From positions 2,790 to 66,789 of the forward strand of contig JADFXQ010000001.1 of NCBI GenBank assembly GCA_015233495.1: DNA of 64,000 nucleotides, given 5' to 3'. Origin of the DNA: Candidatus Omnitrophota bacterium (GTDB lineage Bacteria; Omnitrophota; Gorgyraeia; Zapsychrales; Zapsychraceae). A model generated the notes under the pieces. It saw nothing but the letters and a program-made list of their open reading frames with translations. It ran no database searches and had not been told where the DNA came from. The translations under genes were made by a program, and so were the position numbers. Shown here piece by piece: positions 82 through 54,389 of the stretch; position 1 is the stretch's first letter, and the number at the start of each line of letters is the position of its first letter.

Positions 82-147
82 AAACTTCCTTGACGAGAAA
101 AGCGATCTATCGGCAAATTGTTTGCTTTTCGCCTGCGGCGAAAAATG

Positions 148-221
148 TCGGGGAGGGGGGATTCGAACCCCCGACCCCATGCTCCCAAAGCACGTGCGCT
201 AGCCAGCTGCGCTACTCCCCG
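148..221 (-). tRNA. tRNA-Pro (anticodon TGG), 74 nt, CCA not encoded
   Basis: Folds by hand into a cloverleaf: acceptor CGGGGAG/CTCCCCG, D-arm GCGC/GCGC, anticodon stem CGTGC/GCATG with loop TTTGGGA, T-arm GGGGG-TTCGAAT-CCCCC. Confidence 0.85.
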
Positions 222-9460: not shown

Positions 9461-9484
9461 GTAGGGACGCCCACGAGGGGCGCC
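9461..9484. repeat. truncated copy of the GC-rich palindromic element family (GTAGGGACGCCCACGAGGGGCGCC), 17-40 nt upstream of the ileS start
   Basis: Shares GTAGGG(G/A)CGCCCACGAG and GGGCGCC arms with the copies at 12307, 18147 and 22948. Confidence 0.55.
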
Positions 9485-9505
9485 ATCTTAACTACGACAT
9501 ATCGT

Positions 9506-12271: not shown

Positions 12272-12353
12272 CTTGTGGGTGCCCGTTGTTCTGGCGCGAT
12301 CGCATAACGGGCGCCCACGAGCCTGCCTGCCGAAGGCAGGGGGCGCCCCTACA
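12272..12353. repeat. GC-rich palindromic element, full intergenic copy with an extra inverted arm; its CTAC end supplies the serpin stop codon
   Basis: AACGGGCGCCCACGAGCCTGCCTGCCGAAGGCAGGGGGCGCCCCTACA, preceded by inverted arm CTTGTGGGTGCCCGTT. Confidence 0.7.
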
Positions 12354-13563
12354 TTGCCGACGGGTCATTGACCCGGCCGATGAATAAGATCAACCCGGTT
12401 TTGCGGTCTTGGATGATAAACAGAAATGGATGATCCGCCTGGAATATCTTGGGCGGTACCGACATATGGGTGACAGTTCCTTTCAGCATCATCACCACCG
12501 TTGCCGCGGCCGCTTCCGTTCCTTCTTCATTCACCTCCACAAACGCCTGATGAATCACCGCGGAAATAAACAAATCTTTTTTGCCGGTCATCCCCGAAAA
12601 ATCCGCGTCAACATCGCTAAATGCCGCTTGCATTCCCAGAGAATTCAAATCCTGCCTCATAAAATATTTAGTCCCGAATTTGAACTTAGGCAAATAAATA
12701 ATGACTTTTTCCTGCTGCAATAATTTTTGCCATTCCGCCACCTTGGCCGCGTTCAAAGACGCTTCCACGGATTCCAGAGTTTTTTTCCCCGGCAAAAGAA
12801 TCAGCATGGACAGATCTTCTCCCTGATAAGGCAACTCAAGAATCTGCAGTCCGTCTGCCTCCGCGTAGGATTTGTTCTCGGACAAATACATGGTCGGGAC
12901 TTTAACTGTTTTTTGATCGCCGGTCCTAAAATTCGCTTTCCGAGTATGCTGGGCGTCAAACGGCGTCCGCCAAGACCCTTTAAAATATACGACATTAGTA
13001 AGAATCAATTTTGTATCCGCGCCGATCATTCCCGACGGGATCAATTCCTCGATTTTATGATTCGTCCGCTCCTCTACCCACAGATTAATCGTCTGCCGCG
13101 ATTCCTCCGACCGAATCCGGAAATCCAAATTCGTCGCCTTCCCGCCGTAATATTTCTCGATCAGACTAAAATATTCTTCCAAAAACGGATAACCCTCCTG
13201 CGCCCACAAGGCATTCGCGGTATTCAGCGTGTATTTTTTGTCTGCCTTATTGATCTCCTGATAAATCGCCAAATACGCCTCCCGCCGGGCCGCCGCGTCC
13301 GAAGGAAAATGAAACACCTTTTCCATCTCCGCCGCCGTCTGCCCCCGGCCGCCTTCATACGTCATGGCCAAAGCCGAAGAAATGCTGTAAGGCGAATAAA
13401 AAATATTCCCCGGTAGGGACTTATACCGCGCATAAAGCTCAAACGCGAACTGATTGTTCGCCGCGACCACAGCGCTGACATCCGCCGCGCCGGCCGGGAT
13501 AGGCGCCAAGAATACTGCAATGAGTAATAAAACAACCAACGGCAAAAAAATCCTTTTTATCAT
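12349..13563 (-). CDS. serpin-family serine protease inhibitor, secreted
   Basis: Signal peptide; FYSPYSISSALAM, NAVYFKGSW and reactive-centre-loop-like GTEAAAATVV..PKIFQADHPFLF motifs. Confidence 0.8.
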   Translation of the reverse strand: MIKRIFLPLVVLLLIAVFLAPIPAGAADVSAVVAANNQFAFELYARYKSLPGNIFYSPYSISSALAMTYEGGRGQTAAEMEKVFHFPSDAAARREAYLAIYQEINKADKKYTLNTANALWAQEGYPFLEEYFSLIEKYYGGKATNLDFRIRSEESRQTINLWVEERTNHKIEELIPSGMIGADTKLILTNVVYFKGSWRTPFDAQHTRKANFRTGDQKTVKVPTMYLSENKSYAEADGLQILELPYQGEDLSMLILLPGKKTLESVEASLNAAKVAEWQKLLQQEKVIIYLPKFKFGTKYFMRQDLNSLGMQAAFSDVDADFSGMTGKKDLFISAVIHQAFVEVNEEGTEAAAATVVMMLKGTVTHMSVPPKIFQADHPFLFIIQDRKTGLILFIGRVNDPSAM

Positions 13564-13962: not shown

Positions 13963-14030
13963 ACGCCGACGGATCACTGACCCGGCCGATGAATAAAATC
14001 AACCCGGTTTTTCATCTTGAATGATCCTCC
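13963..14030 (-). pseudogene. degraded fragment of a second serpin gene (3' end only)
   Basis: About 85% DNA identity to 12355-12420, the 3' end of the intact serpin gene, with no ORF around it. Confidence 0.5.
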
Positions 14031-16357: not shown

Positions 16358-19249
16358 TTATCGTTGATCTTCCACAAACGGCACATCGGGGTTACAGATT
16401 TCCTGCCAGACACTGTCTAATCCAGCCAAGCAGGCCGCTTGCATGGCTTGCTGTTCTTCCGGAGTGCTGCCATTTTTGAATCTTTCCAACTTCATGGTCT
16501 TGAGGCTATAGAGCCCGCCCTGGACTCGAGCTTCCGGATAAATTTTTTTCATGCAGTATGTATATAAAGGAAGCTGGAAGGATTTGACGCGGTCGCGGAT
16601 ATTTTCGCGGGTCATTTCCATGCCGGCAATGCGCTGTACTCCTTGCGGGACTTTGTCCGTGCTCCCGGTTTTGTAATCAATGACTAAAATACTGCCGTCA
16701 TTGAGCCGGTCAACCCGGTCAACCACATAACGGAATTTCATCTCGCCGGACGGCAACACAATGCGGTCTTCAAAATGCTTTTCCAAACCGAGGATTTCCT
16801 TCACCTCGCCGTTAACGCGGCCGGCTTCGGATTCATAAAATTGTTCCAGCCGGTGTTCCAGAACCGGACGCATGAGAAACCCGTCAGACAAATTGTTTTT
16901 TCCGAACCGCGCCGTGAATTTCTGCTCAAAGATCGAAAACAACCGCTTATGAAACCCGGCATTGATTTCCGGCTGGCGTCCGATCAACGGCCCAAACGTC
17001 TCCTCCAACACCGCGTGCAATAAAATCCCGATGTCGCGGCCCTCCGGCTCGTCCAACAAATCGTCCCGTTCCCGCAAACCCAAAACATAATTGAGATAAA
17101 AATCCATCGGGTTATCCAAATACATATTCAAAGCGGACACGGAATACGGCATATCCCGCAAAAAATCAACCATGGCCGGAGTCTTGGCGATTTGCCGCGT
17201 CCCTGCCGTGACCTTGACGGCAAAAGACGCGTGCCGCGCTTTTACGCATTCAATCTCCCCGGCCTTGCGCTCCTGTTCCCAGATCAGCTCCTCGACAAAC
17301 CGGCTGCGCTCTTTCTCTTTATTTTCCTCATAAATAAGATGCACCGCCCGCGCCGGCCCGATCAGCCGCATGAATTGATACCGCTGGATTTCTTCGTCGA
17401 GCTCAAGCCGGTCGAGCCCCAAGCTGATCATCACTTCGCGCGGAATCAGCGGCTGATGCACTTGCAAACGCGGCAGTTTGCCTTCATTCACATCCAAAAT
17501 GATAACCTGATCAAAATTCAACGAGCGGGTCTCCAGCAAACCCAAAATCTGCAAGCCCTTAAGCGGCGACCCGGAAAACGAGACCATTTCCCGGCTGATG
17601 TTCTCAGTAAAAATTCGGAAAATATCTTCCGGCAAAAAACGCTCCTTGCCGAATCCGGACTCCCGCATATCCTGCGCCATGTCCAACAACCGCGAAGCAA
17701 TATTCACATTAAAAGGAAACGAGACCAAAGCGCTTTTCTCCGCCACCAGACGGGACAAATTCTCCAAAGCGTCCGCGAAAGAACAAAAATCCCCGATCTG
17801 CTCCCACGCCCGGAAAAATATCTGATGCATCCGCTTGAGCGCCTGACCCAAAGCTTCCCGCGACACTGTCGGGTCCACGGCCCCGGCCGCCTCCCGGCTG
17901 ATCGACAAGACATCCTCGTCCTGCTCAATCTCGTCGAGATTCAAAAACAATTTGCCGGACAGACCCGTGACCGTATCGCCCGACAAAATTTCCTCGATCT
18001 TATGGACTAAAATCCGGGTCACCGCCGGATCTTTAAACCAGCAAATATTTTTCACCAAAGGATGGCGCAAGACCCGCAAATAATCCCGGGCATAATACCC
18101 CTCCGACCAAATTGCATCAGCGGTGTTACTAAATGATTGTTTGTCGTAGGGGCGCCCAAGCTGCCGGCAGGCAGGCGAGAGGGCGCCCATACGTTCGCCC
18201 GTTATCCTATCTGACCGAGACAATTGGCACCGAAAAATATCATCCAGCAGAACACACAAACTGCTGCGGTTTAACGGATATCCCAATGATACATTGCAAT
18301 CCTCTACCCAGGGCCGCAGGTCCGCCAGCAAAGGCACAACCGCGTCGGAATCCGGCAAGACAATCACGGTTTGATCGCGCCGGTCAATGGTCTTGAGAAT
18401 TTCTCCGGCCTGCGCCGCTTGGCTGTGGCGGCTCGTGACAGAATACAATTGAAGTTGAAAATGCAGAGGAACCGGCTGATCGCCTTCGCGCAAAGCGCAT
18501 CCCAACCGCCGGCTGATCCGCTCCAAAACCGGCCATTTGCGCTCATCGCCTTGAAAGATCAAAACCGCCTTGCCCCGGTCGAGGAGATTTTTGACAATCG
18601 CTTCTTCCGTGCGGTGAAAATAAAAAAAGTTGCAAAACAAAATGGCGTCAAATTCCTCCAAAGCCGCGGAGCCGACTTTTTGGGCTGCTTCGCGATAACG
18701 GAATCCCCGGGCCGTCATACCCGACGATCGCAATGCCTCATGATAGGCCAGCCGCAATTTAGACAAATACGTTAACAGCTGATTGATGCCCTGCGGCACG
18801 TCATAACCGATGCGCGCGTTCGCCTCGACTGCCGAAAGACGGCGGTTGTCAATATCCTCCAAATCCAATTGCTCAATAAACGCCAAAATCTCCCGCGCCC
18901 ACGGCAAAAAATCCGCAAAGGTTTTTCGTTTCTCCAAAATCTCCGGCGCGACAGTCAGGGCCAACTGATAAATCAAATAACACTGATCCAAATCGCCCGC
19001 GCCCGGCCGGGCGGCGTCTTGGGCAAGCCGGTCAACCAACTCATCAATCGTGAACATGACCGGCGGGAAAAACCCCTGCCCGATCCGCTTAGCCAAAGCC
19101 CGGCTCAAAAACAAACGCGGCCGCTTCCCGCCAAACACCACAGCCACCCGCCGCAAATCCTTGCCCGGCTGAATAAAATTAACATCCAAATATTCAGCCA
19201 GCCGGTCGATAAACGGCTCTGCGAAATTAAAAGTGATTATTTTTTGCAT
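16358..19249 (-). CDS. AddB/RexB-like helicase-nuclease subunit (PD-(D/E)XK nuclease, no Walker A)
   Basis: 963 aa; C-terminal ILVIDYKTGS nuclease motif; lies in tandem with the AddA-like gene. Confidence 0.65.
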   Translation of the reverse strand: MQKIITFNFAEPFIDRLAEYLDVNFIQPGKDLRRVAVVFGGKRPRLFLSRALAKRIGQGFFPPVMFTIDELVDRLAQDAARPGAGDLDQCYLIYQLALTVAPEILEKRKTFADFLPWAREILAFIEQLDLEDIDNRRLSAVEANARIGYDVPQGINQLLTYLSKLRLAYHEALRSSGMTARGFRYREAAQKVGSAALEEFDAILFCNFFYFHRTEEAIVKNLLDRGKAVLIFQGDERKWPVLERISRRLGCALREGDQPVPLHFQLQLYSVTSRHSQAAQAGEILKTIDRRDQTVIVLPDSDAVVPLLADLRPWVEDCNVSLGYPLNRSSLCVLLDDIFRCQLSRSDRITGERMGALSPACRQLGRPYDKQSFSNTADAIWSEGYYARDYLRVLRHPLVKNICWFKDPAVTRILVHKIEEILSGDTVTGLSGKLFLNLDEIEQDEDVLSISREAAGAVDPTVSREALGQALKRMHQIFFRAWEQIGDFCSFADALENLSRLVAEKSALVSFPFNVNIASRLLDMAQDMRESGFGKERFLPEDIFRIFTENISREMVSFSGSPLKGLQILGLLETRSLNFDQVIILDVNEGKLPRLQVHQPLIPREVMISLGLDRLELDEEIQRYQFMRLIGPARAVHLIYEENKEKERSRFVEELIWEQERKAGEIECVKARHASFAVKVTAGTRQIAKTPAMVDFLRDMPYSVSALNMYLDNPMDFYLNYVLGLRERDDLLDEPEGRDIGILLHAVLEETFGPLIGRQPEINAGFHKRLFSIFEQKFTARFGKNNLSDGFLMRPVLEHRLEQFYESEAGRVNGEVKEILGLEKHFEDRIVLPSGEMKFRYVVDRVDRLNDGSILVIDYKTGSTDKVPQGVQRIAGMEMTRENIRDRVKSFQLPLYTYCMKKIYPEARVQGGLYSLKTMKLERFKNGSTPEEQQAMQAACLAGLDSVWQEICNPDVPFVEDQR
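18144..18208. repeat. GC-rich palindromic element inserted in-frame in the addB-like gene (encodes ITGERMGALSPACRQLGRPYD)
   Basis: GTAGGGGCGCCCAAGCTGCCGGCAGGCAGGCGAGAGGGCGCCCATACG is the inverted orientation of the intergenic copy at 12307. Confidence 0.7.
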
Positions 19250-19319: not shown

Positions 19320-19335
19320 CATTTGTAAATTTAAC

Positions 19336-36039: not shown

Positions 36040-36290
36040 TCCCCTGCGCTATTCCGTACTCAAAGCCAGCTTGGGGAACAGCTGATTCGGCGGATACCCC
36101 GTAACGCCCCGCAAATAAATCTTCTCAACCCCGGCGCGGAAAATCGATCCCACATTATACCCCAAACATATGTCATTCAGAACTAAAACTAAAGGCAAGA
36201 CTTGCACAGGGGAATTTTGTTGCTGCCGGAAAACTAATTACAGATGAGTCAATTTTCGCATGCGGCATTAGTCTTCGGGAAGGCGAACGT
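36040..36290 (-). pseudogene. disrupted duplicate of the 5' end and upstream region of the trmH-like gene (reads MRKLTHL*)
   Basis: About 80% DNA identity to 37950-38200, with an early stop and frame breaks. Confidence 0.6.
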
Positions 36291-37625: not shown

Positions 37626-38170
37626 ATTTTTGCTGTAATCCCGGACAACCGTTTTTGCAATTCATTCCTGATATGATAAGCGGCTATCCCCGCCGCGACC
37701 GCCACATTCAAGGAATTCTTCAATCCCGCCATTTCAATCTCAATGGCCTGATCGCAATCCGCGAGAATCGTTTCGCTCACCCCGGAAATTTCATTGCCGA
37801 CGACCAAACACACCGGCCGCTTGGGATGATAATCCTGATACAACACACTCGATTCCATTTGCTCCAAGAGGACAATCTCATACCCCTCCTGCCGCAAACG
37901 CCGCACCACAACCCGCACATCCCGCTCGTGTTCCCAGGGGACGCGCTGTTCTGCGCCCAAAGCCGTCTTGGAAATCAGCTGATTCGGTGGATACCCCGTT
38001 ATCCCGCAGAGAAAAATCTTCGCGACTCCCGCGCCGTCCGCGGTGCGGAAAATCGAACCTACATTATACCCGGAGCGGATGTCATTGAGAACAAAAACAA
38101 ACGGCAAAACCGAAGCCCCGTTTTTTTGCTCCTGACGAAAAACTAATTCCTGATGAGATAATTTGCGCAT
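37622..38170 (-). CDS. SpoU/TrmH-family RNA 2'-O-methyltransferase
   Basis: NVGSIFRTADGAG and VGNEISGVS / NSLNVAVAAGI SPOUT motifs. Confidence 0.7.
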   Translation of the reverse strand: MRKLSHQELVFRQEQKNGASVLPFVFVLNDIRSGYNVGSIFRTADGAGVAKIFLCGITGYPPNQLISKTALGAEQRVPWEHERDVRVVVRRLRQEGYEIVLLEQMESSVLYQDYHPKRPVCLVVGNEISGVSETILADCDQAIEIEMAGLKNSLNVAVAAGIAAYHIRNELQKRLSGITAKI

Positions 38171-38245
38171 GGGCGTATTATAGCAAAAAAAAGGCGCTCC
38201 GAAATTAAAGAGCGCCTTTTTATTCTCCAGCAAACCTATTAGGGT

Positions 38246-40941: not shown

Positions 40942-43536
40942 TTAAAATTTTTTCACATCCGCCGGCATTTCCCGGTTGTTCAGGCCCAACAGCGGCAAAA
41001 CGCTGGGCAAAGGCGTGATTCCCAGAAAAATCGCTTCTAAACCCCGAAAATGTCCCGCCCGCAGCTCTGCGCCAACCGCCGGGTCGAATTTAAATTCAAT
41101 GCCTGATCCTTCTTTAGCGATTTCCATTCCCATTCGTTTTCCATTAAACGCCACACCGCCGAGCGGCGTCATTTCAGCCGGCGAAGATTGCTGCGCGCCT
41201 GCGGCGCTCACCTCATGAATAGCTTCGCTATTGACCGCCAGTCCTTCAAAGGCGAGTCGCAACGCGATCAATTCTTCCGGCAACATATTCGGGAATTTAA
41301 AAATATTAAAACGCCATTCAGATCCAAAGGGGGCCTGTAATAAATAATCAGACAGCGACGAAATTGGACGCCGATTGCCATTAGGCGCCACAATATCGAT
41401 CGACGCGTAAACACCGGGGTTAACCGATGAATCTTTATCACCCATTTGCGGCGCGCTCTGATATTCCACTCGATATCCTTCCGGGAGTTTGGGGTATTCC
41501 CGAACCTGGTTTAATATAGAGTCTGGCGCACTGTCCCCACTTAAAACACCTCCCAAAGCCTGAAAAATTCCCGCATAATGTATAATGCTTAGTTCCCATA
41601 TTGTTTTTTCCCAAATACGGATTTGCATTTCCCGATAAGCATCTACCACTGCTTTATTGACCAGTTCCAAGACTTTGCCTCTGGGCAAAGCCAGAATGAC
41701 ATCATGCTGCTGCAGCCCGGGATCACTCGCCACGGTTGTTTGGAATGTAAAAAACAACGTGTGTTTCTCTTTCGCCATATCGGCTATGCCCTGCTCAGAA
41801 GGGGACGGATCGATTCCATCTTTCCTTACAACTGACCTGATGCTTCCGTCTCTGAGCTGGATGCCATCGACCACCACCCCATCAACAGCCTGACGTTCCC
41901 GTAGAAAAAATTGCAAGGCAGGAGCCGTGGTTTGTTGTCCCCAATATCGGTTACTGGCGCCATAAGTGAACTTGATTTCATTTTGAAGCTTGGGCAATAA
42001 GCTTTTTATATCTTTTTCCAAAGCCAGCACTGGCGGTCTAACCACCACCACATTTTGATTTGGCAGAACCACTGTCACAATCACACTCTGACGAATTTGG
42101 AGGGCCTTTTCCCAATCTTCCGGCTTTGGATCAGTATTAAGATGCAATTCATCTCCTGTCCCTGCTAACAAAAACATATCTTTACCCGGATCTTCCTGAA
42201 TGCCGACTTTGACTTCAGCAGCATACCAACCTCGTAAAATCTTTTGATAATCCCCCGCGGTTTTTGTCCCGGGATAACTTAAATTTCGCAGAATGTCCGA
42301 CATGATCGACGCATCGCGTTGAGTCAACTTCGCGGGCGATGATTGCGCCGCTTTGGTTAATTTGGTGTATCCTATGGGCTGCATCCTTTCTGTCACAAAA
42401 ACGGCGTCCGAGACGAGCAAAAGCGCGGTTTCCGCCGGAGAACTGCTATACGCCGTAACGGGGTCTGGTAACATATGTAATCCGCCGGAAAAATATTTGC
42501 GGGAAGTGGTCTCTTCCGTGACCGGATCCGTGTCTTCTTTGATATAGTTAAAAACCCCCTTGGAAAATGCGTGTAAATACCGTTCATAAATCTTGTCTTT
42601 TTCAGCAGGATCCGCGGTTTTGACGCCTTCGATTTTGCCGGTGTTGCTGTATACCTCATTGATCAGGGCGTTTTTTAAGGTTTTTTTGTACCACGAAGCC
42701 AGAATCATCGCATGAAACATCTGGCGCAATTGGGTGAAATTCTTGCCTTGATTCACTTCTTTTTCAATTTCGGGAATGACCACTTCCTTGACAGCCGAAG
42801 CCGCCATGCTTTGAGCGGAGCGAAATAGCGGCGGAGTGCCGAACCCAGTCAGTTCGGCTGTTGTTTTCTTTTGAATCGCCACATAATCCTCTTCCATCAT
42901 CACCTTCAACTTCCAGCCGATCACAAAAGCCGTATTATTTCGTTCCAAGACCTTGGCATGGTCCGCCACGATCCAGACTTTATTAAATGTATCCACCGGG
43001 ATATCCACATTGCCGTATTGCTTACGCACCTTGGCATAAACAGTATCCCAGAATTTTTTCCCCAATTCTTTTTCCGGGTACATCAAGGAAGCGGTCAATT
43101 GTTTCAAAACATAATCCTGCGCTAACATATCCCGCCCCATTTCCGTTTTTCCTAAAGCATCCGGAACGATCCGGTTTTTTTCATACGGCGAAAAGTTCAC
43201 CCAGAGATCTTCGTCCTTAATCGTAAGGCTGGCCAAAAAATACTTAATCAGTTTTTGCGCCTCCGCCTTGAATTCCGGGCTATTGGTCTTATATCCGGAA
43301 TGGCCGGAATCAATAATAAAATCAAACAACAACGGATTATCCGGATGGACGACCAGTCCTTTCATCATGACCGGCGTGTACATAGGTGTCAATCCGACCA
43401 TTGCTCCCGGCGCCGGCAAAAGCAAAGGCCCGGCAAATACGCTTTGTCCCGGACCAAAAGCCCATCCGCAGAAAAAGATTAACCATACGGTAAAAATACG
43501 ATAAAAAAGAGTTTTTTTGAATTTGCTGATGGACAT
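40942..43536 (-). CDS. secreted 864-aa protein, paralog of the N-terminal domain of the giant protein
   Basis: Signal peptide; blocks LWVNFSPYEKNRIVP and FWDTVYAKVRKQYGN..VWIV align with the giant ORF. Confidence 0.65.
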   Translation of the reverse strand: MSISKFKKTLFYRIFTVWLIFFCGWAFGPGQSVFAGPLLLPAPGAMVGLTPMYTPVMMKGLVVHPDNPLLFDFIIDSGHSGYKTNSPEFKAEAQKLIKYFLASLTIKDEDLWVNFSPYEKNRIVPDALGKTEMGRDMLAQDYVLKQLTASLMYPEKELGKKFWDTVYAKVRKQYGNVDIPVDTFNKVWIVADHAKVLERNNTAFVIGWKLKVMMEEDYVAIQKKTTAELTGFGTPPLFRSAQSMAASAVKEVVIPEIEKEVNQGKNFTQLRQMFHAMILASWYKKTLKNALINEVYSNTGKIEGVKTADPAEKDKIYERYLHAFSKGVFNYIKEDTDPVTEETTSRKYFSGGLHMLPDPVTAYSSSPAETALLLVSDAVFVTERMQPIGYTKLTKAAQSSPAKLTQRDASIMSDILRNLSYPGTKTAGDYQKILRGWYAAEVKVGIQEDPGKDMFLLAGTGDELHLNTDPKPEDWEKALQIRQSVIVTVVLPNQNVVVVRPPVLALEKDIKSLLPKLQNEIKFTYGASNRYWGQQTTAPALQFFLRERQAVDGVVVDGIQLRDGSIRSVVRKDGIDPSPSEQGIADMAKEKHTLFFTFQTTVASDPGLQQHDVILALPRGKVLELVNKAVVDAYREMQIRIWEKTIWELSIIHYAGIFQALGGVLSGDSAPDSILNQVREYPKLPEGYRVEYQSAPQMGDKDSSVNPGVYASIDIVAPNGNRRPISSLSDYLLQAPFGSEWRFNIFKFPNMLPEELIALRLAFEGLAVNSEAIHEVSAAGAQQSSPAEMTPLGGVAFNGKRMGMEIAKEGSGIEFKFDPAVGAELRAGHFRGLEAIFLGITPLPSVLPLLGLNNREMPADVKKF

Positions 43537-44799: not shown

Positions 44800-44975
44800 A
44801 TTGCTGGATCAGAAGCAGAAAACTAATCAGCCAAACTAATATTTTCGATCTTGAGCCGATCCAGGATCTGCGTAAAGTTAAATAAGTCCTCATAATATAA
44901 GTATAAAATATAAATCGACGGAAAATAAGGGCGGGACCGGGGGGTTGGGAAAGCGTTTTCTTTATGGCAGCACTA
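44800..44975 (-). pseudogene. duplicate of the giant-gene promoter plus first 31 codons (MRTYLTLRRSWIGSRSKILVWLISFLLLIQQ*), upstream of lacI
   Basis: About 85-90% DNA identity to 54167-54320. Confidence 0.6.
44949..44960. promoter_or_regulatory. LacI-type operator-like half-palindrome GAAAGCGTTTTC (AANCGNTT core)
   Basis: Sequence motif; a counterpart, GAAAAAACGCTTTC, is present at 54304-54317. Confidence 0.3.
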
Positions 44976-45688: not shown

Positions 45689-48600
45689 TTATTCCGAATG
45701 CAGCATCACCAGCATCTCCCGCATCTCAGGATCAGTGGGGGATTGTTCGTCTTCTTCAAGGCGCAGGATGTCCGCGATACAGCCCAAGACCGCCGGGCGT
45801 TCTTTTTTCAACCGGCCGTTTTGATATGACGCGGCCACATAATTTGCAATCCGCCGGATCGCGGGGATGCCCCCTTCCGCCAACATGGCCTGGATGGCAG
45901 CCCACTCGTCTCGAGAATTAAAATCCGCGGGCAGCTTAGCCGCCATTTTTCGCCACCCGTATAGAGAATTGGTTCCTTTCTCAAAGGGGGACAACTCCCG
46001 CAAGTCAACGCCGCCGGGATTCTCCGCGGATTCCGCCGGGGCCGGCGAACTTTGGCGCCGGGTTGCGCCTAATTGCGTTGTTACCGGCGAACCGGCCGCG
46101 TCAGCCCGCGCCGGGTCTATTCCCGAATCTTCACCCTCCAGAACAAACCAGTTGCATGCAACCCATTTCATCATTTGAGCGAACGGGCCGACCGGTTGGT
46201 GGGTAAAACCGCTTTTGGAATCCGTTGACACAAAACCCCGGCGCAACTGCTCCCGGACATCCAGGTTCGTCCTGACCGACTCTTCCAATAAATGCGCTAA
46301 TTCATGAATAATAACATCCGTAGCTTGACAAATCACGCCCGGACCAGCAACCCCAATTTGTCCCGCCAAAGCACGGTTCAGAAACATTGTCGGCTTTTCC
46401 TGGCCTTTGGGGCCATAATACCCGAACGCGCCCGCGAACCGCAGTGACTCATCAGGTAAATCACTCAACAACACAACCTGCTCTATGCCGAAATGCCTCG
46501 CCCCGGATAAAGCCAAATCCCGCAATTCCTTTTCCCGATCAGTATAGGCGCTGGTATTGATCATAAATTTTTCAGGATGAGAAATTTGTTCAATACCGGT
46601 TGTCACATCAATTGACTTGCTGACCATCTCATCAAAATCCGCTATATCTTCGGCCTGCGGTACGGCTTCCAAAATATATCCGGCTTGCTCTGCCGCGCGT
46701 TGCAGCGCTTTGGATGCTTTTCCCAAAAATGACGGCCGCTGCTTTTCCCGTTCTATTTGCAACTTCATACGCCGTCCAAATAAACTGATTGTTTTCCCGG
46801 GCCTATCCGGATTCGGCACATTTAACATTAAAATCAATTTAACAAAGTTCGGAACCACAAGGTCTTTTTCCCCATACTGCGCCGGCAGAGATTCTAATTC
46901 CTCAGAGCTAATCAAGGAAAATTGACCGGCATTGATCTTGTTCGCCAACGCGCTGATGGCCCGATCGTGTTGATCAATGGCTAACGAATAATGTTCTCTC
47001 GGCTCTCTTTCCCATTCGACAGGAAAACCCTCAAAAGTAAATTGACCCTGCTCTGCCGTGGCTGGCATCATTGTCCGCAAAGCCAAAGCCTTATAAAATT
47101 CGATTGCCACATATCTCTGAACTATGGATTTATAATGTTCGTCAAAATGCGCGAACTTGTCGCGATTGCCGGTCAGCGGCAACGGGACCTGCACGATCAA
47201 CCCCAGTTGTTGAATATGCTTGCGTAAGGCCGGCGGGACGAGCGCGAAATACTGGGCTTCATCCAACTCGCATACCCGGCGGCCAAATTTGTCTACGACC
47301 TGCGACGGCATATCCCTAGCGCTAATGATTTTAAATTTGCCGTCAAACGTATGGGTTTGCGACGCGATAAGAAAATCCCAAGCCTGGGGAAATTCTTTCT
47401 CCAATGTCCGCCGGATAGCTTGCTCCGCTTGGTCCCAACCCTCCCGCAGGGTGATCTCATTGTCGCCAACCCGATACGCCCACCCGCGCTCCACCATGAT
47501 CCCCGCAAACCTGGACCACTCCCAACTGCGGGGCGCCCACCCGGCCCACCAACGGCGCGGTCGAGGCAATTGCGTCTCAAATTCCTGCCGGGTGATCGGC
47601 TTGCCTCCGGCAAGTATGGCCTTAAAATCGGTTTCACTTAAAACCTGATGATCCACAGTCAGCAGTTCATTGTGAGTCTCGCCGTCGATACCGCGCCGGA
47701 AATATATCCCAAATCCGCCGCTGGTTCGCGGCCCATCCGCAGTGGAAGAAAGTCCGGAAAATATCTTATACGCGCGCTCGGACAGCATCGCGTCAAATTC
47801 CGGGATCGTGTCTTTCGCTTTTTTGATCCGCCGAATCAAAACCCCATCCTGCACATTGGGGTCGCTAATCTTCCGGATCCGGGTGAGCTTCACGTGAAGC
47901 GGGTTGCCAAACGCGTCTTTGGAAACTTGGATCACAAACATATAACCCGTCCCTTGCCGGCAGGTAATGATTTCCACGCGGTCCACCCCGGCCAAAAAAG
48001 TATATTTCCCTTTCCCAAAAAAACCGGCAGAATGTTCTTGCTCATCCGCTTCTTTAGTCGACACCTTGATCAACAACGCTGCCGCGTAAGCCGCGCCGGG
48101 TCCGTCGTCCTGGAAAGCCTCCACATATTCTTCTTCGCCGTTATTGTCCTGCAAATAATGGTCAATGACCAAGGTTTTCGCGCCCGCGTCCTGGGCGTTG
48201 GCCGGACCTTCGCGAGCGGCCGCGTCAGCTTCTCCCTGTACCTTGACATCGAACAGCACATCCTTTTCAGATTGGGGATCGGTTTCCGGCAAAGACACCG
48301 CAGGGTCCTGAATCGCGGCTATCAAATCGTCCATCGCAATAACCGGCTGGCCGTTCTTGGGCCGGCGTCGTTCCAAATCGTTCAATCGGGAAAGGTCAAT
48401 TCCCTGCGGATAATGCCCAGTGCCGTCCGCCAACAAAACGTCTTCGCCATTCGGCAAAACCGGTTGCCCGCGATGCGGCAATTCATCGATCTCTTGAGTC
48501 AAAAAAGCCACGACCGGACGCGCGTATCCCATGTCATGGCCGGCCAGCGGATCATCCGCGTAGGCCAACAAGAGCCGGATGCCAACAGTCTGGAAACTCG

Positions 48601-51600
48601 AACATAATTTTTTCAGAAAATTGACTTTGCTTTGCTCTTCCGCTGTGAGGATCCGGCTGATTTGCTTGGTCATGATCGGGATATGATGAACCGGATCATT
48701 GCCGGCAAACCGGGCCAAGAACGCCACCGCATCTAAAAGCCCAGACGTGTTGATTCCCGTAAACGTAGTAAGCGCTCTGATCAATTGAATCACCGCTTCC
48801 AGAGCCCGGACTTGTTCAACAGTGTCCATTTGCCAGCCGCCGCCTAAAGCGAGTACCGCTTCCAAAGATAAATCCGTCGCGGCATCCTCGTCCAGAGCCA
48901 TTTGAAATAAACTGCCAAACAATTGCGTATAAAAAGCTCGCCGCGTTTTATGGACATTGGGTAAACGTTCGGCAACTGTTTCCAGATAACCCGGCAAACC
49001 GGACATGATCCGGGCCATCCGCCGCTCAAATAACTCAAACGGCAGTCCGGTCAAATCTAATTCCTGCCCTTGTGCCGCCGCGGCAAAACGCCGCCGGATT
49101 TCCGCGGTCTGCTTTGCAAACAACCGGTCAATCCCCGCTTCGATCCGTCCGTTGATTTCATCTTGATAATCCGCGCACTCCTCGGGAACCAAGGCCGCGA
49201 ACCCCAAATAAGCCGCTCTGGCCTGAGCAATCCAGGCTTCACCCTGACTCATAATTTTTTCCTGCCACAAAGCATCTTCGCGGCGCTCCGGCTCTACTGG
49301 AGCAGCTGCCGGCAGCTCAATTGGGACCTCAGACACCGCTCTTATTCTCTCCGATAAGTTCGCATAAAACGCTCTTATAATTTCCTCGTAAATAGCCGTC
49401 GGCGGCGCCAACGCCGAAGTTCGAACCCGGGTGCGCCGCGGGTCCAAATAAATACTCTGGCCCGTGCTCGCGTTGGTGAAAACAAAATACTCCCCGTTCA
49501 CATGCACATAAGCAAAAGCGTCGGGTACACCCTGGGGAATTTCCCGAACGTTTCCTTGCGCGTCGAATATTGCGAGTCTACCCTGTAAAATAAATTCGCG
49601 GCTCTTTGTTATCGTAATAGAAAGCGATGATAAGTTTACGCTATGGAATTTTTGGGTTCCCTCATCCCAAACCACCAACATCGAATCATCTTTCCGGTCA
49701 ACCCACCAACTCTTGCCGCCTTTTAAAGGTAAGATCTCCGTGGTTATACCGCAATCAAATTGTTCTTCCTCTACCTCGCTTTTTAAATTTCGGAATAATG
49801 TGTCACCCTGCACATTGCCAATATTCCGCCAAACAGCCACATTACCGAACAATTCCACAGTTGTACGGTCCTGTTTCGTCGGCGGATTGGAACTATAATG
49901 TATCCTTGTCCCCATAATCATGAATAAGCCGAACCTATCCGCAATTTGGTATATGTTGCTCCCCGAAATATCATACCCTTGCCAGAATTCCGGGCTGGCT
50001 TGGCCGGACGGAAACTCCGGAATTGATTGTTCATTATACAATTGCCTTAGGACAAGTGTGTTTTTATTCCTTAGAAACGTCAACATTTCATTTTTGTCGC
50101 GGCCTTCGAAAACTACATAAACAAATCCCGCATCATTACTGATAAAAATTTTTTCTTTGAAATCTGGCATCCTGGTTGTAACCGGTTCTCCTGACTTTAA
50201 ATTGATCAAACCTAATTTATTCCCTATTTTATAAATCGCAATCATGCCGCTGGCGTCGATCTCAATATGCTCCGCGTTCCAAATCAGCGGTTTACCCGAT
50301 TCCAAGGAAAAAAGGCCATAGGTATTATTCCTTTGCTTGGCAATGACCACATCCGCTTTGTCGTGAACAACGTATTCACTGATCTCCCTGAATGACGTGA
50401 ACCCAGTCAGCTGGGGAAGCGCGGCGTCATGATCGCAATATTTGATCTCATTTTTAAACCGCTGGACGGAAAACCGCCCGGAAGCGGACAGTTGAATGTC
50501 CCAGGCGCGCTTCCGCGCAGACCTGGTCGTAGGTAAATTTCGAATATCTATGATCTCTTTCCCGCCCGCCTGATCAACATATTCCACAATCAAAAACCGA
50601 TCCGTATGCGACACCATATAGCAATCGTGCACCGTCCAGAGCAGTTCACCCGCGGGATTATAGATATCAACCTTTCGAGAAAATATTCTCATGAAATAGT
50701 TGTCTTCCATTCTAATGAATCGTGCTATTCCTATCTCAATATGGTCTTCTGCTGGAGCGTCTGACGGTTTACTGAACAAAAATATAGAATCCGCTGGCGC
50801 GGCCTGTGACCCTTCAGCAAACGGCGCCACAACCGTTTGGGAAGGTCCCGGAACAAAAGCAGTTGCCGGAGGGCGGCTTAAATCTTCCCGAAACCTCTGC
50901 TCTGCGGCGGCGCCTATGCTGCCTGCGTTGGAAACAGCCGGCCAAGCCGGTTTCGCCGGCGCGGCCGTCGGGGCGTCGATAACATTCGCTTCCGCGAATC
51001 CCGGCCGCATTTCATATCCCGTGACAAGGGCCTCCCCCGTCATCTTATTGATCTGCTCCCACATATGCGCCAATTCTTTGCGTTCCTGCGCATTCAGACC
51101 CGTTGATTTTTTCGCCAACTCAAACAACCTTTGCCCAAAAGAATTGCGCCCCTTGCCTGAGGGCACAGCCACAAAATCTTTGGCACGGACCAGCGCCAAA
51201 TCCCGGTCAACTTGTTCGCTGGATACCGCCTTTCCGTTTACCGCAGCCAAACTTTCCGCGGTGAACGGCAAAACCACCACTGACAACTCGCCTTTCAACA
51301 GCTTATCCGGGATCACCTGGCCGCCCAATTGACTCGCGATAAACGTGGCAGTGCTGTCAAACAAATCTTCATGCAGCCAAATCACTTTGTCTTCTTTTCC
51401 CTTCGGAATTTGCACCTTGCGAAAATCCGTATAATACGGCAAAAGCAGATATCCCTGCGCTTGATATTCTTTTAACCAAGGCTTAAGCGCTTTCTTGATC
51501 TCCATCTTTATTTGATCGATGACATTAGCATGCTTGCCGTTTTCACCAATCAATCCATCCAAACCGCAAACCAGCATATTGATGTACCGGATCTTATCCG

Positions 51601-54250
51601 GTGTCAGGATATCCGGATTCGTTAAAATGCCCTGAACTGCGCGATTGACCGCAAACTGAAAATTCCCTTCTAACCTCGCTTCTTCCGGAAGCTTGACCTC
51701 GTCCCGAGCTTCCGGCACATCCAAAAATCCCGCCAAATCCACCAATAGGCCTCCCTCCGCCACCGCCTGCGGCAATACCCGGTCCGGGATTTGCACAGCT
51801 TTAATCACTTCATACCTGCGGCCGAATGAAACCTCTCTTTTGGAAGACAAGGGGTCAAAAACGACACTGATCCGCTTGGCTTCTTGGTCCCGTTTTGCCC
51901 CGTCCAATTCATCCGCTTGTTTTGAACCCTTCACAAACATCCGTGACAAAACACCCGCGTCCATGCCTTTTCCATTATCCACAATCACAATTTCCCCGTC
52001 GTGAGACCAGATATGCACCCGCCGGGTTGCCGCGTCCGCCGCCCTTTGGGCCTTTCCGGTGTGGGGAACAAGCACAACCTTGCGGTCAAAATCGTTCAAT
52101 TTTTCGCCCTGCACATAAATCGTGACATCCGGCACATAAGCAAACCGGTTGGCCAACTCGGTGATCATTGTGTTTTGAAACGCCGCGTCCGCGTCTTTTT
52201 TTCCCGGCGCCCAATCCTGACTTTTAACGCGCACCACTGTGCCCTGAGTGATTTCATTTTCTCCCAGCGCCGCCTGTTGAAACACAGACCGGTCAATGGC
52301 TTTAATCTGAATATAATTTTGCCCGGACCGGCTTTTTAAAATCGTGAGTTGATAATAATCTCCGTCCCGGGCGCGCGTCAGCACTTCAATGCGGTCCTGT
52401 CCGCTGGGGCCCAACCATTCCAAGATCTGCTTCACGCCTTTTCCAAATTGTCCGATATCGCACCCCAAGGCATCCAAACTGTTGGACACCGCTTCAAAAA
52501 TAGCTTGGGTTTTAGGTTTTTGGCTTTGTTTATCCGTGAGTTTTTTCAGATAAGGATTTTTGTAAGTGTCTTGATTTATGCTGTCAATGATCGCTTTATT
52601 GTATTTGCCGCCGGATAATTCTTTTAAAAGGTCTTGGATGGCTGCGGCAAACGCTTGTTCCCGTCTCGCTTTATTCATAGCATCCAAGTCATAAGCTTGC
52701 GGAGCCAAACCCGCCAAAGTCAATACCTGCTTAAGGTGATCCGCTTGCATACCCAAACTCAATTGTTGCTGAGCGTGAAAAAAATGCTCTAAATCAATAC
52801 CAGAAAAACCCAATTCCGGGTCTTCATAAGCAAAGGCTTCCGAACTGATTTGGACTTCAGCCGGTTTCGGTCCGGAGAACGACTCTTCATCTTTATTGAC
52901 GTTTATTGTTTTTCGGAATAACGACTTTAGTTTATCGAGCCAGCTCGCTGCCGGGGATGAAGACGACTTCATCTCCGTTACCTCCGAGGATACGGCCGAA
53001 ACCGCCGGGATCTGTTCTGCGTCCAGCCCGCCCCTGATTCCAATCGGAATGACGGACGGAGAAATCGGCAAAACATTGGCCGGGTTCGGAATATAAACCG
53101 CGGAAGAAACTGTCAAATCAAACCCGCCGCTCACATAGGTCCGCACGGTTTGGCCGTCGGGAGTGTCAACTGATTTTTCGCTGTTATATTCGCCGTTTTG
53201 AAAAGATTTTTTGTAGGCTGAGAAATAAGTGTCTTTGGACCAGGTTGTCTTAGATTCAAGACCCGTGAGGTTTTGTTGATCGATCAGGTTGGGATAAGTT
53301 CCGGATTGGTTTTTATATCTTTTTTTGAACCATTGCGCCAAGATCAGCGAGTAATAAACTTGCCGAAATTGCGCATACCGTTTGGCTGTGTTGACTTCCT
53401 TGGTCAGCCGCGGAATTATGAGTTCGCGAATCTGCTGGGACGCGTATTCATTGATGGCTTTTAATTTTGGGTCAGTAAAATTGTAGTCCGGGTCGTTTTT
53501 GAGATGGTCCTGCTGTAGCATGACTTTGAGCGTGGCTTTGTAAATGTAGGCGCCCCCCTCCCCTCCCCATGCTTCGCGGGGGAGGGGTTTTGCATACTGC
53601 TTTTCTTTTCGGATTCGTTCGCTCTCTATCTTTTCCTTTCTATTTTCACTAATGATAATTTCCCCCGGCACGATCCACGGCCGGGTCATAGTCGGGATAG
53701 CGATTTCCTGATTGCCGTAGATTTCACCGGCTTTTTTATAGACCCGGGTCCAATATTCCCGGCCTTCCGGGGTTTCCTGGGACACGTATTTGGCCATGTC
53801 CTTCTTCAACTGCAAATCCGCGGCCAGCAAAATCCGCCCGATATCCGTGCGCGCTAATTGCGGGTCAATGCTATGATCTTTGTCTTCCGGCCGCAGGTTC
53901 ACCCAGAACATACTGTTCGGCAAAGTCAGGCCGATAAAAAAATAATTCAGCAGGTCTTTGGCAGTGGATTCGATTTCCGGCGACTTGACATTTTTCTGAT
54001 CGCCTTTATCCAACAGCAAATCAAACTTATTAAGGGGAATGTTGTAAGCTAAATACCGAAAATGCAAAGGCCGAAACTTGTCCGCGACCAGCATATTCCC
54101 CAACCCGGACATCGCGCCGGCCACATCCAAAGACACTGCCAACTGCGCCAATCCGGTCTGCTGGACCAGAAGCAGAAAACTAAGCAGCCAAACTAATATT
54201 TTTGACCGAAAGCAGATCCAGGATCTGCTCAAGGTAAAATTAGTCCTCAT
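45689..54250 (-). CDS. giant secreted multidomain protein (2853 aa) with GHKL-ATPase-like motifs and a C-terminal HExxH zincin-like motif
   Basis: Signal peptide; N-domain paralogous to 40942-43536; EAVSNSLDA...DNGKGMD and DAGAKT..DDGPG..GFFGKGKYT Bergerat-fold motifs; IIHELAHLLEE. Confidence 0.8.
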   Translation of the reverse strand: MRTNFTLSRSWICFRSKILVWLLSFLLLVQQTGLAQLAVSLDVAGAMSGLGNMLVADKFRPLHFRYLAYNIPLNKFDLLLDKGDQKNVKSPEIESTAKDLLNYFFIGLTLPNSMFWVNLRPEDKDHSIDPQLARTDIGRILLAADLQLKKDMAKYVSQETPEGREYWTRVYKKAGEIYGNQEIAIPTMTRPWIVPGEIIISENRKEKIESERIRKEKQYAKPLPREAWGGEGGAYIYKATLKVMLQQDHLKNDPDYNFTDPKLKAINEYASQQIRELIIPRLTKEVNTAKRYAQFRQVYYSLILAQWFKKRYKNQSGTYPNLIDQQNLTGLESKTTWSKDTYFSAYKKSFQNGEYNSEKSVDTPDGQTVRTYVSGGFDLTVSSAVYIPNPANVLPISPSVIPIGIRGGLDAEQIPAVSAVSSEVTEMKSSSSPAASWLDKLKSLFRKTINVNKDEESFSGPKPAEVQISSEAFAYEDPELGFSGIDLEHFFHAQQQLSLGMQADHLKQVLTLAGLAPQAYDLDAMNKARREQAFAAAIQDLLKELSGGKYNKAIIDSINQDTYKNPYLKKLTDKQSQKPKTQAIFEAVSNSLDALGCDIGQFGKGVKQILEWLGPSGQDRIEVLTRARDGDYYQLTILKSRSGQNYIQIKAIDRSVFQQAALGENEITQGTVVRVKSQDWAPGKKDADAAFQNTMITELANRFAYVPDVTIYVQGEKLNDFDRKVVLVPHTGKAQRAADAATRRVHIWSHDGEIVIVDNGKGMDAGVLSRMFVKGSKQADELDGAKRDQEAKRISVVFDPLSSKREVSFGRRYEVIKAVQIPDRVLPQAVAEGGLLVDLAGFLDVPEARDEVKLPEEARLEGNFQFAVNRAVQGILTNPDILTPDKIRYINMLVCGLDGLIGENGKHANVIDQIKMEIKKALKPWLKEYQAQGYLLLPYYTDFRKVQIPKGKEDKVIWLHEDLFDSTATFIASQLGGQVIPDKLLKGELSVVVLPFTAESLAAVNGKAVSSEQVDRDLALVRAKDFVAVPSGKGRNSFGQRLFELAKKSTGLNAQERKELAHMWEQINKMTGEALVTGYEMRPGFAEANVIDAPTAAPAKPAWPAVSNAGSIGAAAEQRFREDLSRPPATAFVPGPSQTVVAPFAEGSQAAPADSIFLFSKPSDAPAEDHIEIGIARFIRMEDNYFMRIFSRKVDIYNPAGELLWTVHDCYMVSHTDRFLIVEYVDQAGGKEIIDIRNLPTTRSARKRAWDIQLSASGRFSVQRFKNEIKYCDHDAALPQLTGFTSFREISEYVVHDKADVVIAKQRNNTYGLFSLESGKPLIWNAEHIEIDASGMIAIYKIGNKLGLINLKSGEPVTTRMPDFKEKIFISNDAGFVYVVFEGRDKNEMLTFLRNKNTLVLRQLYNEQSIPEFPSGQASPEFWQGYDISGSNIYQIADRFGLFMIMGTRIHYSSNPPTKQDRTTVELFGNVAVWRNIGNVQGDTLFRNLKSEVEEEQFDCGITTEILPLKGGKSWWVDRKDDSMLVVWDEGTQKFHSVNLSSLSITITKSREFILQGRLAIFDAQGNVREIPQGVPDAFAYVHVNGEYFVFTNASTGQSIYLDPRRTRVRTSALAPPTAIYEEIIRAFYANLSERIRAVSEVPIELPAAAPVEPERREDALWQEKIMSQGEAWIAQARAAYLGFAALVPEECADYQDEINGRIEAGIDRLFAKQTAEIRRRFAAAAQGQELDLTGLPFELFERRMARIMSGLPGYLETVAERLPNVHKTRRAFYTQLFGSLFQMALDEDAATDLSLEAVLALGGGWQMDTVEQVRALEAVIQLIRALTTFTGINTSGLLDAVAFLARFAGNDPVHHIPIMTKQISRILTAEEQSKVNFLKKLCSSFQTVGIRLLLAYADDPLAGHDMGYARPVVAFLTQEIDELPHRGQPVLPNGEDVLLADGTGHYPQGIDLSRLNDLERRRPKNGQPVIAMDDLIAAIQDPAVSLPETDPQSEKDVLFDVKVQGEADAAAREGPANAQDAGAKTLVIDHYLQDNNGEEEYVEAFQDDGPGAAYAAALLIKVSTKEADEQEHSAGFFGKGKYTFLAGVDRVEIITCRQGTGYMFVIQVSKDAFGNPLHVKLTRIRKISDPNVQDGVLIRRIKKAKDTIPEFDAMLSERAYKIFSGLSSTADGPRTSGGFGIYFRRGIDGETHNELLTVDHQVLSETDFKAILAGGKPITRQEFETQLPRPRRWWAGWAPRSWEWSRFAGIMVERGWAYRVGDNEITLREGWDQAEQAIRRTLEKEFPQAWDFLIASQTHTFDGKFKIISARDMPSQVVDKFGRRVCELDEAQYFALVPPALRKHIQQLGLIVQVPLPLTGNRDKFAHFDEHYKSIVQRYVAIEFYKALALRTMMPATAEQGQFTFEGFPVEWEREPREHYSLAIDQHDRAISALANKINAGQFSLISSEELESLPAQYGEKDLVVPNFVKLILMLNVPNPDRPGKTISLFGRRMKLQIEREKQRPSFLGKASKALQRAAEQAGYILEAVPQAEDIADFDEMVSKSIDVTTGIEQISHPEKFMINTSAYTDREKELRDLALSGARHFGIEQVVLLSDLPDESLRFAGAFGYYGPKGQEKPTMFLNRALAGQIGVAGPGVICQATDVIIHELAHLLEESVRTNLDVREQLRRGFVSTDSKSGFTHQPVGPFAQMMKWVACNWFVLEGEDSGIDPARADAAGSPVTTQLGATRRQSSPAPAESAENPGGVDLRELSPFEKGTNSLYGWRKMAAKLPADFNSRDEWAAIQAMLAEGGIPAIRRIANYVAASYQNGRLKKERPAVLGCIADILRLEEDEQSPTDPEMREMLVMLHSE
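53546..53594. repeat. related palindromic element (GTAGGCGCCCCCCTCCCCTCCCC-N9-GGGGGAGGGG) inserted in-frame in the giant gene (encodes PLPREAWGGEGGAY)
   Basis: Direct reading of the sequence; the paralog at 40942-43536 lacks this segment. Confidence 0.6.
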
Positions 54251-54303
54251 ACTATAAGTATAGAATATAAATCGACGGAAAATAAGGGCGGAACCGGGTT
54301 TTC

Positions 54304-54317
54304 GAAAAAACGCTTTC
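54304..54317. promoter_or_regulatory. LacI-type operator-like site GAAAAAACGCTTTC about 55 bp upstream of the giant gene
   Basis: AANCGNTT core; duplicated at 44949. Confidence 0.3.
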
Positions 54318-54389
54318 TTGCTCGCGACTAAATTTCATATAACTATAATTTAGTCTTGACTAAAATAACCTTAGGTATAATATAGTCGT

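Follow-up and report, generated by a model that had tools for sequence, protein, structure and literature searches.

GTAG-tagged repetitive extragenic palindromes (REPs), as surveyed by Di Nocera, De Gregorio and Rocco in 2013, have stems of 5 to 13 bp and loops of 2 to 20 nucleotides (nt) (PMC3733652). They often occur as inverted dimers and are thought to be mobilized by RAYT enzymes (REP-associated tyrosine transposases); REPs have also been reported to work as terminators and as stabilizers of mRNA (PMC3733652). Intragenic copies that keep the reading frame reach their highest numbers in Opitutus terrae, a member of the Planctomycetes-Verrucomicrobia-Chlamydiae (PVC) superphylum, and are frequent in repair genes of the UvrD/RecBCD type (PMC3733652). 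This work concerns a candidate for a comparable event in the phylum Omnitrophota: an in-frame insertion associated with a hairpin-forming element (positions 53546 to 53594) in the gene for a protein of 2,853 amino acids (aa). The gene lies in a 64,000-nt stretch of DNA from a Candidatus Omnitrophota bacterium (GenBank assembly GCA_015233495.1, contig JADFXQ010000001.1, positions 2,790 to 66,789), which was analyzed over its whole length and is referred to here as the window. All coordinates are those of the window unless another locus is named.

The 2013 survey related intragenic GTAG REPs to Rickettsia palindromic elements (RPEs), which are in-frame insertions in Rickettsia open reading frames (ORFs) (cited in PMC3733652). 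A third system, REPIN/RAYT, comprises REP doublets mobilized by REP-associated tyrosine transposases (PMC3479197, PMC8266576). Insertions of the REP type within genes have been known since 2013, and the case described here would be an atypical and unproven instance in a new phylum. In the Omnitrophota literature that could be searched, no mention of palindromes was found.

RESULTS

A 27-codon insertion in a loop of a conserved domain

The conserved Omnitrophota N-terminal domain (here, the N-domain) of the 2,853-aa ORF covers about residues 30 to 376. Homologs were aligned with MAFFT, using 34 and then 120 Omnitrophota sequences, and the alignments contained one 27-column gap exactly at the insert site; the segment is absent from the 864-aa paralog encoded in the same window and from 120 of 120 homologs. 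The span from the PWIVP motif to the TLKV motif is 26 residues in 108 of the 120 homologs, compared to 53 in the query. Across this loop, the family consensus is PWIVPGEIIIRETxD-SAYIYKATLKV and the query reads PWIVPGEIIISENRK[EKIESERIRKEKQYAKPLPREAWGGEG]GAYIYKATLKV. The insert is in frame and free of stop codons, its boundaries are ambiguous by approximately three codons on each side, and no direct repeats of the kind left by target-site duplication were seen by eye around the 81 nt.

The initial annotation had proposed that a segment of roughly 25 residues in this gene, missing from the paralog, is an insertion. The BLASTP and MAFFT comparisons bear out the insertion itself, with the refinement that the inserted piece comprises 27 codons (81 nt) and not the 49-nt palindrome alone. 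The position of the gap, on which that proposal had been made to depend, was not displaced in the pairwise comparison with the paralog: BLASTP divided the gap into segments of 22 and 5 residues, both within the same loop. Approximately 36 of the 81 inserted nt are unstructured, purine-rich on the coding strand, and encode RKEKIESERIRKEKQ; here, the GC content falls to 0.32.

The position of the insert was further considered in an AlphaFold2 model built from 121 sequences, which places it at the tip of a beta-hairpin formed by strands 191 to 203 and 233 to 245. The predicted local distance difference test (pLDDT) score is 54 to 67 within the insert, compared to >90 on both flanks, and a short helix is predicted over RKEKIESER. 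In this model, the insert occupies a surface loop that appears able to accommodate it. Smaller insertions (1 to 19 aa) are present at the same point in 12 of the 120 homologs; the loop is permissive, an indel hot spot.

A GC-rich hairpin within the insertion

On the plus strand, positions 53546 to 53594 read GTAGGCGCCCCCCTCCCCTCCCCATGCTTCGCGGGGGAGGGGTTTTGCA, with the parts GTAGGCGCCCCCCTCCCCTCCCC-ATGCTTCGC-GGGGGAGGGG, and the minus strand encodes KPLPREAWGGEGGAY, corresponding to residues 221 to 235 of the 2,853-aa ORF. Both the sequence and the coordinates agree with the initial annotation. The element contains a perfect 9-bp stem in which CCCCTCCCC (53560 to 53568, or 53555 to 53563 in an alternative register) pairs with GGGGAGGGG. 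The loop measures 10 nt, or 3 nt given both inner G-C pairs.

This hairpin was compared to the rest of the window by several measures. Perfect stems of at least 9 bp are found at 17 loci, and the element alone among them has an arm with G or C at 8 of 9 positions. The arm CCCCTCCCC occurs four times in the window, compared to an expectation of 0.70, with three of the four occurrences inside the element and the fourth in tRNA-Pro. The 42-nt core of the insert has a GC content of 76 to 79%, a level reached at 0.4% of window positions. At −25.8 kcal/mol, the 50-nt folding energy at the element ranks approximately 12th of roughly 1,280 non-overlapping 50-nt windows; compared to shuffled sequences of identical composition, the fold stands out only moderately (z = −1.7 as DNA and −2.3 as RNA). 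Searches of Rfam at gathering and relaxed thresholds returned nothing meaningful for the element.

A link to the tRNA-Pro gene (147 to 221, minus strand) was considered and rejected. The gene and the element have an 11-mer (CCCCCCTCCCC) and a 9-mer (CCCCATGCT) in common, but these lie in opposite orientations, and the match was judged a low-complexity coincidence.

The main GTAG repeat family of the window

The window also contains a better-defined family of palindromic repeats with the architecture GT(A/G)G-GGGCGCCC-[CCTGCC..GGCAGGCAGG]-GGGCGCCC, referred to here as the main family. Its three full copies (Table 1) align almost column for column and constitute the three most stable 50-nt folds of the window. 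One of the copies is intergenic, and the other two are read through in frame in genes for an AddB-like nuclease and an AddA/UvrD-like helicase. This family fits the description of a GTAG-REP-like repeat, including its locations in AddA- and AddB-like genes. As a separate observation, read-through of the family in two repair genes mirrors the published bias of intragenic REPs toward such genes. A short GTAG-tagged form is found where the IleRS ORF is annotated to begin, probably upstream of the actual start codon.

The initial annotation had connected the element to this family through a common terminal sequence. Comparison of the two did not sustain the connection. The best local alignment of the element with the main family scores 20, compared to 15.8 ± 2.8 for shuffled sequences, and the same score is reached by 9% of shuffles and, among the other GC-rich 51-mers of the window, by 11%. 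Whereas the main family has two GGGCGCCC boxes approximately 32 nt apart around an inner hairpin, the element has one GGCGCC(CC) box and no GGGCGCCC, and it aligns poorly. Exact GTAGGCGCCCC occurs once in the window and, with one mismatch allowed, twice, compared to 0.97 expected, so that there is no enrichment. The GTAGGC at the end of the element, which had been taken as the link to the family, consists of the host codons for Ala234 and Tyr235. These two residues are conserved in at least 90% of sequences (as AYIYKATLKV), and a homolog from another Omnitrophota genome (locus L240, described below) has GCC TAT there. Since GTAGGC represents near-invariant host codons, the GTAG end belongs to the host. 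At the other side of the element, GCATAC (53591 to 53596) is an inverted match to GTAGGC at five of six positions. Besides 53546 to 53594, no copy of the element's hairpin was found in the 64-kb window.

Palindromic repeats in other members of the protein family

In-frame palindromic repeats are recurrent in the loops of the N-domain across the phylum. The most direct case is homolog P0080, from an Omnitrophota metagenome-assembled genome (MAG; locus L240), which carries a 19-residue insertion, GLSPEGLPAGRQGTVPVTP, in exactly the loop that holds the insert described here. The insertion corresponds to a palindromic element of approximately 50 nt that encodes GLSPEGLPAGRQGTVP and is present in three copies in one 1.1-kb gene. 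Within it is a perfect 20-nt palindrome, CCTGCCTGCCGGCAGGCAGG, identical to the inner core of the main family of the window.

Other homologs carry repeats in other loops. The gene for P0090 (locus L241, GCA_043808405.1) contains a head-to-head pair, GTAGGGGCGCCCCTTGTGGGTGCCCC ... GGGCAGGCACAAGGCCTGCCCCTAC, in another loop, where it is translated as VGAPLVGAP...RAGTRPAPT, and a third GTAG hairpin in yet another loop. Different palindromes, folding at about −57 kcal/mol, are found in the genes for P0049 (L242) and P0087 (L243). Peptides of the GLSPKGTVP type are present in approximately 9 of the 120 homologs (P0040, P0041, P0049, P0054, P0063, P0070, P0080, P0094, and P0118), all in the loop after the conserved LLLDKGD motif, where they occupy two neighboring sites of the alignment. 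The repeat peptides found in the N-domain include GLSPEGLPAGRQGTVP, GLSPKGTVP, VGAPLVGAP..RAGTRPAPT, and VIAS..AKQS..LAPRND; among the 120 homologs, at least five peptide types occupy at least four loop sites.

These inserts resemble the one in the window in that they are found in the same protein family, in the same or neighboring loops (the very same loop in the case of L240), and are in frame, hairpin-forming, and translated into peptides rich in Gly, Pro, and Ser. They differ in being repeated (L240) or in having a canonical GTAG stem, and they fold more strongly (−39 to −57 kcal/mol); the window element matches none of them.

Scans of genome and metagenome collections

Two patterns were searched for outside the window, and the results given here hold among the matches listed. 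The first, the two-box arrangement of the main family (GGGCGCCC-N15-30-GGGCGCCCCYAC), was sought in GTDB genomes, with 80 loci listed. Repeats of the GTAGGGGCGCCCCTTGTGGGCGCCC type were found in Chloroflexota, Acidobacteriota, Chthoniobacteraceae, and others, often with several per MAG; chance matches in Streptomyces were mixed in, and no Omnitrophota-titled locus was among the 80. These matches help to class the main family as GTAG-REP-like but have no bearing on the element at 53546 to 53594.

The second scan, of metagenome_contigs, employed the hairpin pattern GCGCCCCCCTCCCC-N3-25-GGGGAGGGG. The matches came mostly from high-GC contigs (median, 66% GC) and fell into several unrelated repeat families; the seven loci with the lowest GC content were mostly intergenic. 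In high-GC environmental contigs (L120 to L239), GCGCCCCCCTCCCC-loop-GGGGAGGGG hairpins abound, and several repeat families can be recognized among them. One of these consists of GCGCCCCCCTCCCCCTTGCGGGGAGGGG followed by TCGGGGGTGGGGG, and another is always preceded by TGGCAGACTAACT.

The host protein family

A search with the first 437 residues of the 2,853-aa ORF retrieved 322 homologs of its N terminus, the best of which is 57% identical; those with a source name are mostly from Candidatus Omnitrophica/Omnitrophota. The N-domain has no Pfam match. Its AlphaFold2 model has a mean pLDDT of 80.7, with most of the domain >90, and a Foldseek search of the model against the Protein Data Bank gave nothing with an E value of <0.001. 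Elsewhere in the ORF, residues 2018 to 2110 give a weak match to HATPase_c_3.

The N-domain comprises approximately 350 residues (window positions 52900 to 54250, residues 1 to 450 of the 2,853-aa ORF; it is also present in 40942 to 43536). In the database, its C-terminal fusion partners are very diverse and include HEAT repeats, phosphoglycerate kinase, GAPDH, enolase, and HD domains. We regard it as a secreted or anchored domain that is phylum-wide in Omnitrophota. The 864-aa paralog aligns with the N-domain of the 2,853-aa ORF at 28% identity (E = 2e-44, BLASTP).

Two further features involve these genes. The first is a 161-nt repeat of approximately 85% identity (44802 to 44962 versus 54159 to 54319), which contains the upstream region, the start codon, and the first ∼30 codons (the signal-peptide region) of the 2,853-aa gene. 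Its other copy sits upstream of a LacI-family gene that itself precedes the gene for the 864-aa paralog, and it meets a stop codon after approximately 33 codons. This copy looks like a leftover 5′ end of a paralog or a duplicated promoter. The second lies within the 2,853-aa ORF, where a single GTGGGCGCCCC box at 47530 to 47540 is surrounded by 42 nt of 83% GC coding for RPRRWWAGWAPRSWEWSRF; this may be another decayed repeat insert.

Other repeats in the window

Several longer repeats were observed away from the host gene. Two 36-nt direct repeats (94% identical; 19558 to 19593 and 22610 to 22645) bracket a stretch of approximately 3 kb near tRNA-Val (19335 to 19409) that encodes an AbiEii toxin, a DUF6577 protein, and a RhuM-family protein. 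The arrangement suggests a small integrated island flanked by att-like repeats. The serpin gene is bracketed by a 47-nt repeat (94% identical; 12356 to 12402 versus 13965 to 14011). In the vicinity of the genes for the ABC transporter and SpoU, three adjacent blocks (75 to 81% identical) recur at a distance of ∼1.9 kb (36046 to 36262 versus 37943 to 38171).

TABLE 1 Features of the insertion, the repeat families, and the genes that carry them
Feature	Position	Strand	Remarks
Lineage-specific in-frame insertion of 27 codons (81 nt)	within 53552..53641	−	MAFFT: residues 206-232, nt 53555-53635
GTAGGC, codons of Ala234-Tyr235	53546..53551	−	Host residues, outside the insert; with the next base they give rise to the apparent GTAG tag
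Hairpin left arm, CCCCTCCCCTCCCC	53555..53568		(CCCCT)x2 + CCCC; two registers of the 9-nt arm
Hairpin loop, ATGCTTCGCG	53569..53578		3-nt loop when closed by the two inner G-C pairs (GC..GC)
Hairpin right arm, GGGGAGGGG	53579..53587		
Unstructured part of the insertion	53588..53641	−	T-rich on plus strand (TTTTGCATACTGCTTTTCTTTTCGG...), purine-rich on coding strand; encodes RKEKIESERIRKEKQYAK
Host gene, 2,853-aa ORF	45689..54250	−	ORF list and homology searches
864-aa paralog, N-domain without the insertion	40942..43536	−	BLASTP, MAFFT
Main-family copy, intergenic	12304..12353	−	Just after the serpin gene
Main-family copy in AddB-like PD-(D/E)XK nuclease ORF	18146..18192	+	ORF 16358-19249, minus strand; in-frame read-through as MGALSPACRQLGRPY
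Main-family copy in AddA/UvrD-like helicase ORF	22946..22995	−	ORF 22620-25808, minus strand; in-frame read-through as VRGGAPCHGRQDSGRPSS
Short GTAG-tagged form, GTAGGGACGCCCACGAGGGGCGCC	9461..9486	+	Annotated 5′ end of IleRS ORF
L240 element, three copies	340-395, 736-791, 1036-1091		Positions in L240
L241 repeat elements	3220-3303, 3925-3942		Positions in L241
L242 palindrome	626-706		Position in L242
L243 palindrome	351-455		Position in L243

DISCUSSION

The likeliest reading, to which we give about even odds, sees the insert as a REP/RPE-like palindromic element, divergent or decayed, that a permissive loop tolerates. What the analysis shows is that the insertion exists, forms a hairpin, and is located in a loop, and that genuine repeat elements are carried likewise by related proteins of this family. 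The in-frame repeats in N-domain loops of the homologs at L240 to L243 are the strongest indirect evidence for a repeat-element origin. Descent of this particular insert from a mobile repeat family, as well as its mode of movement, we infer. According to such a scheme, a small REP/RPE-like palindromic element, or what is left of a repeat dimer (possibly one unit and the spacer), would have entered the turn between two beta strands of the N-domain, landing in frame, with no stop codon, in a loop tolerant of additional residues. On the coding strand, the palindrome makes up the 3′ two-thirds of the insert, as a GC-rich 9-bp stem in an otherwise AT-rich coding sequence. A RAYT-type single-strand transposase, or some other route, may have moved the element, which would have survived as a passenger, translated into a flexible excursion of Pro, Gly, and charged residues. 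It would be tolerated because it is in frame, stop-free, and at the tip of a beta-hairpin.

Of the described systems, GTAG REPs come close in several respects. The 9-bp stem and 10-nt loop of the element fall inside the published ranges of 5 to 13 bp and 2 to 20 nt (PMC3733652), the element is read through in frame in a coding gene and adds about 15 to 30 residues, and the host lies in or near the PVC superphylum, in a genome that also has GTAG palindromes in UvrD/RecB-type repair genes. Unlike GTAG REPs, the element is known as a single copy, its GTAG is host-encoded and 5 to 10 nt from the stem (rather than 0 to 2), no RAYT is in view, and almost half of the inserted DNA lies outside the palindrome. 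With RPEs, the insert has in common that it is palindromic, keeps the frame, is absent from homologs, and occupies a surface-exposed, tolerant site. RPEs of the kind studied by Ogata et al. are, however, reportedly about 100 to 150 nt long and belong to well-defined multicopy families; they are thus longer and repeated, and they come from an unrelated lineage, whereas one copy is known here. As for REPIN/RAYT systems, the main family and the L241 elements resemble GTAG-tagged REPs in inverted pairs, and the window element shows the overall layout of a tag and then a hairpin. It differs from these systems in that no RAYT is found in the window and in being a singleton with an atypical tag.

Several observations weigh against descent from a mobile repeat. 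A search with blastn-short using all parts of the 81 nt detected neither the insert nor its hairpin a second time in the 64-kb window. The ORFs scanned there (non-nested ORFs of at least 170 aa and a 135-aa PIN ORF) gave no match to a transposase family or RAYT. The low-complexity portion, 36 of the 81 inserted nt, is unexplained by the palindrome. The GTAG at 53546 to 53549 is host-encoded and stands 5 nt (in the alternative register) or 10 nt off the stem instead of abutting it, and the element resembles the main family no more than expected by chance (p about 0.1). The hairpins retrieved from metagenomes, among the matches listed, come mostly from unrelated high-GC contigs; we do not count them as evidence of homology, and they say nothing of Omnitrophota.

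A purely local origin accounts for some of these features and, in our estimate, is the main rival, though a less likely one. In this account, the loop grew by replication slippage, template switching, or both, with no mobile element involved, and the hairpin is a by-product of a purine-rich low-complexity tract, in which Gly codons (GGG GAG GGG) face Pro codons (CCC CTC CCC), or of a reverse-complement copy of one arm. The left arm is indeed a tandem repeat, (CCCCT)x2 + CCCC, and a near-repeat, AGAAAGGAAAAG/CGAAAAGAAAAG (RKEK ... RKEK), is present in the remaining half of the insert. No sequence in the window resembles the insert, its similarity to the main family being at chance, and the loop indels of 1 to 8 aa in other homologs (SVNTERGR and GSAALTT, for example) are not obviously palindromic. 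However, a perfect 9-bp G/C stem in 81 nt is improbable without a process that generates palindromes (by our own estimate, such a stem has a probability of approximately 0.5% in a random 81-nt segment), and the GC content rises from ∼0.32-0.45 to 0.76-0.79 over the 42 nt of the insert core. Moreover, the largest other insertion at the site, that of P0080, is demonstrably a repeated element. Membership in the main family itself would make the insert one half of such an element, its inner arms altered from CCTGCC/GGCAGG to CCCCTCCCC/GGGGAGGGG. GTAGG and GCGCCCC(C) are common to the element and the head of the family, a C-rich arm, a TTCG/CGAAG loop, and a G-rich arm follow in the same order, and the inverted ends GTAGGC ... 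GCATAC recall those of the 18146 to 18192 copy (GTAGGG ... CCATAC). Against these likenesses, the alignment score does not exceed compositional controls, the second GGGCGCCC box is absent, GTAGGC belongs to host Ala-Tyr codons, and the element lacks the almost column-for-column fit of the three copies, so that we consider membership quite unlikely.

The hairpin could instead have been kept for a function at the level of nucleic acid, either as an antisense intrinsic terminator on the plus strand, with the stem followed by TTTTGCATACTGCTTTTCTTTT, or as a structure that stabilizes the sense mRNA or induces pausing. On the plus strand, the G/C stem does directly precede T-rich sequence (TTTTGCAT, then TTTTCTTTT), a promoter-like site (53391 to 53419, plus strand) lies ∼135 nt upstream, and published work ascribes terminator and mRNA-stabilizing roles to REPs (PMC3733652). 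Nevertheless, a scan for consensus terminators did not flag the site, promoter-like matches are near chance (5, compared to 2.6 ± 1.7 expected), the structure has no Rfam match and occurs in no homolog, and the folding z-scores are only −1.6 to −2.3; such a role seems improbable to us. A broader proposal extends to the protein family as a whole: the loops of the N-domain may be systematically colonized by several unrelated palindromic repeat families that serve to diversify the loops, or that act as internal hairpins for transcription or antisense control in very long genes, instead of being neutral passengers. The insert in the 2,853-aa gene would then be one instance. We regard this proposal as speculative, with the odds well against it.

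Taken by itself, the insert is probably a small, neutral decoration of one protein. The phylum-wide colonization of N-domain loops by repeats is the more interesting lead. Omnitrophota, which are known almost only from metagenomes, appear to carry in-frame palindromic repeats of the GTAG type and of other types, in repair genes and, repeatedly, in the loops of a phylum-wide N-domain of unknown fold. In-frame inserts of this kind inflate the apparent divergence of proteins, create spurious low-complexity peptides, and can mislead alignments and structure prediction. At the same time, they are natural markers of permissive loops.

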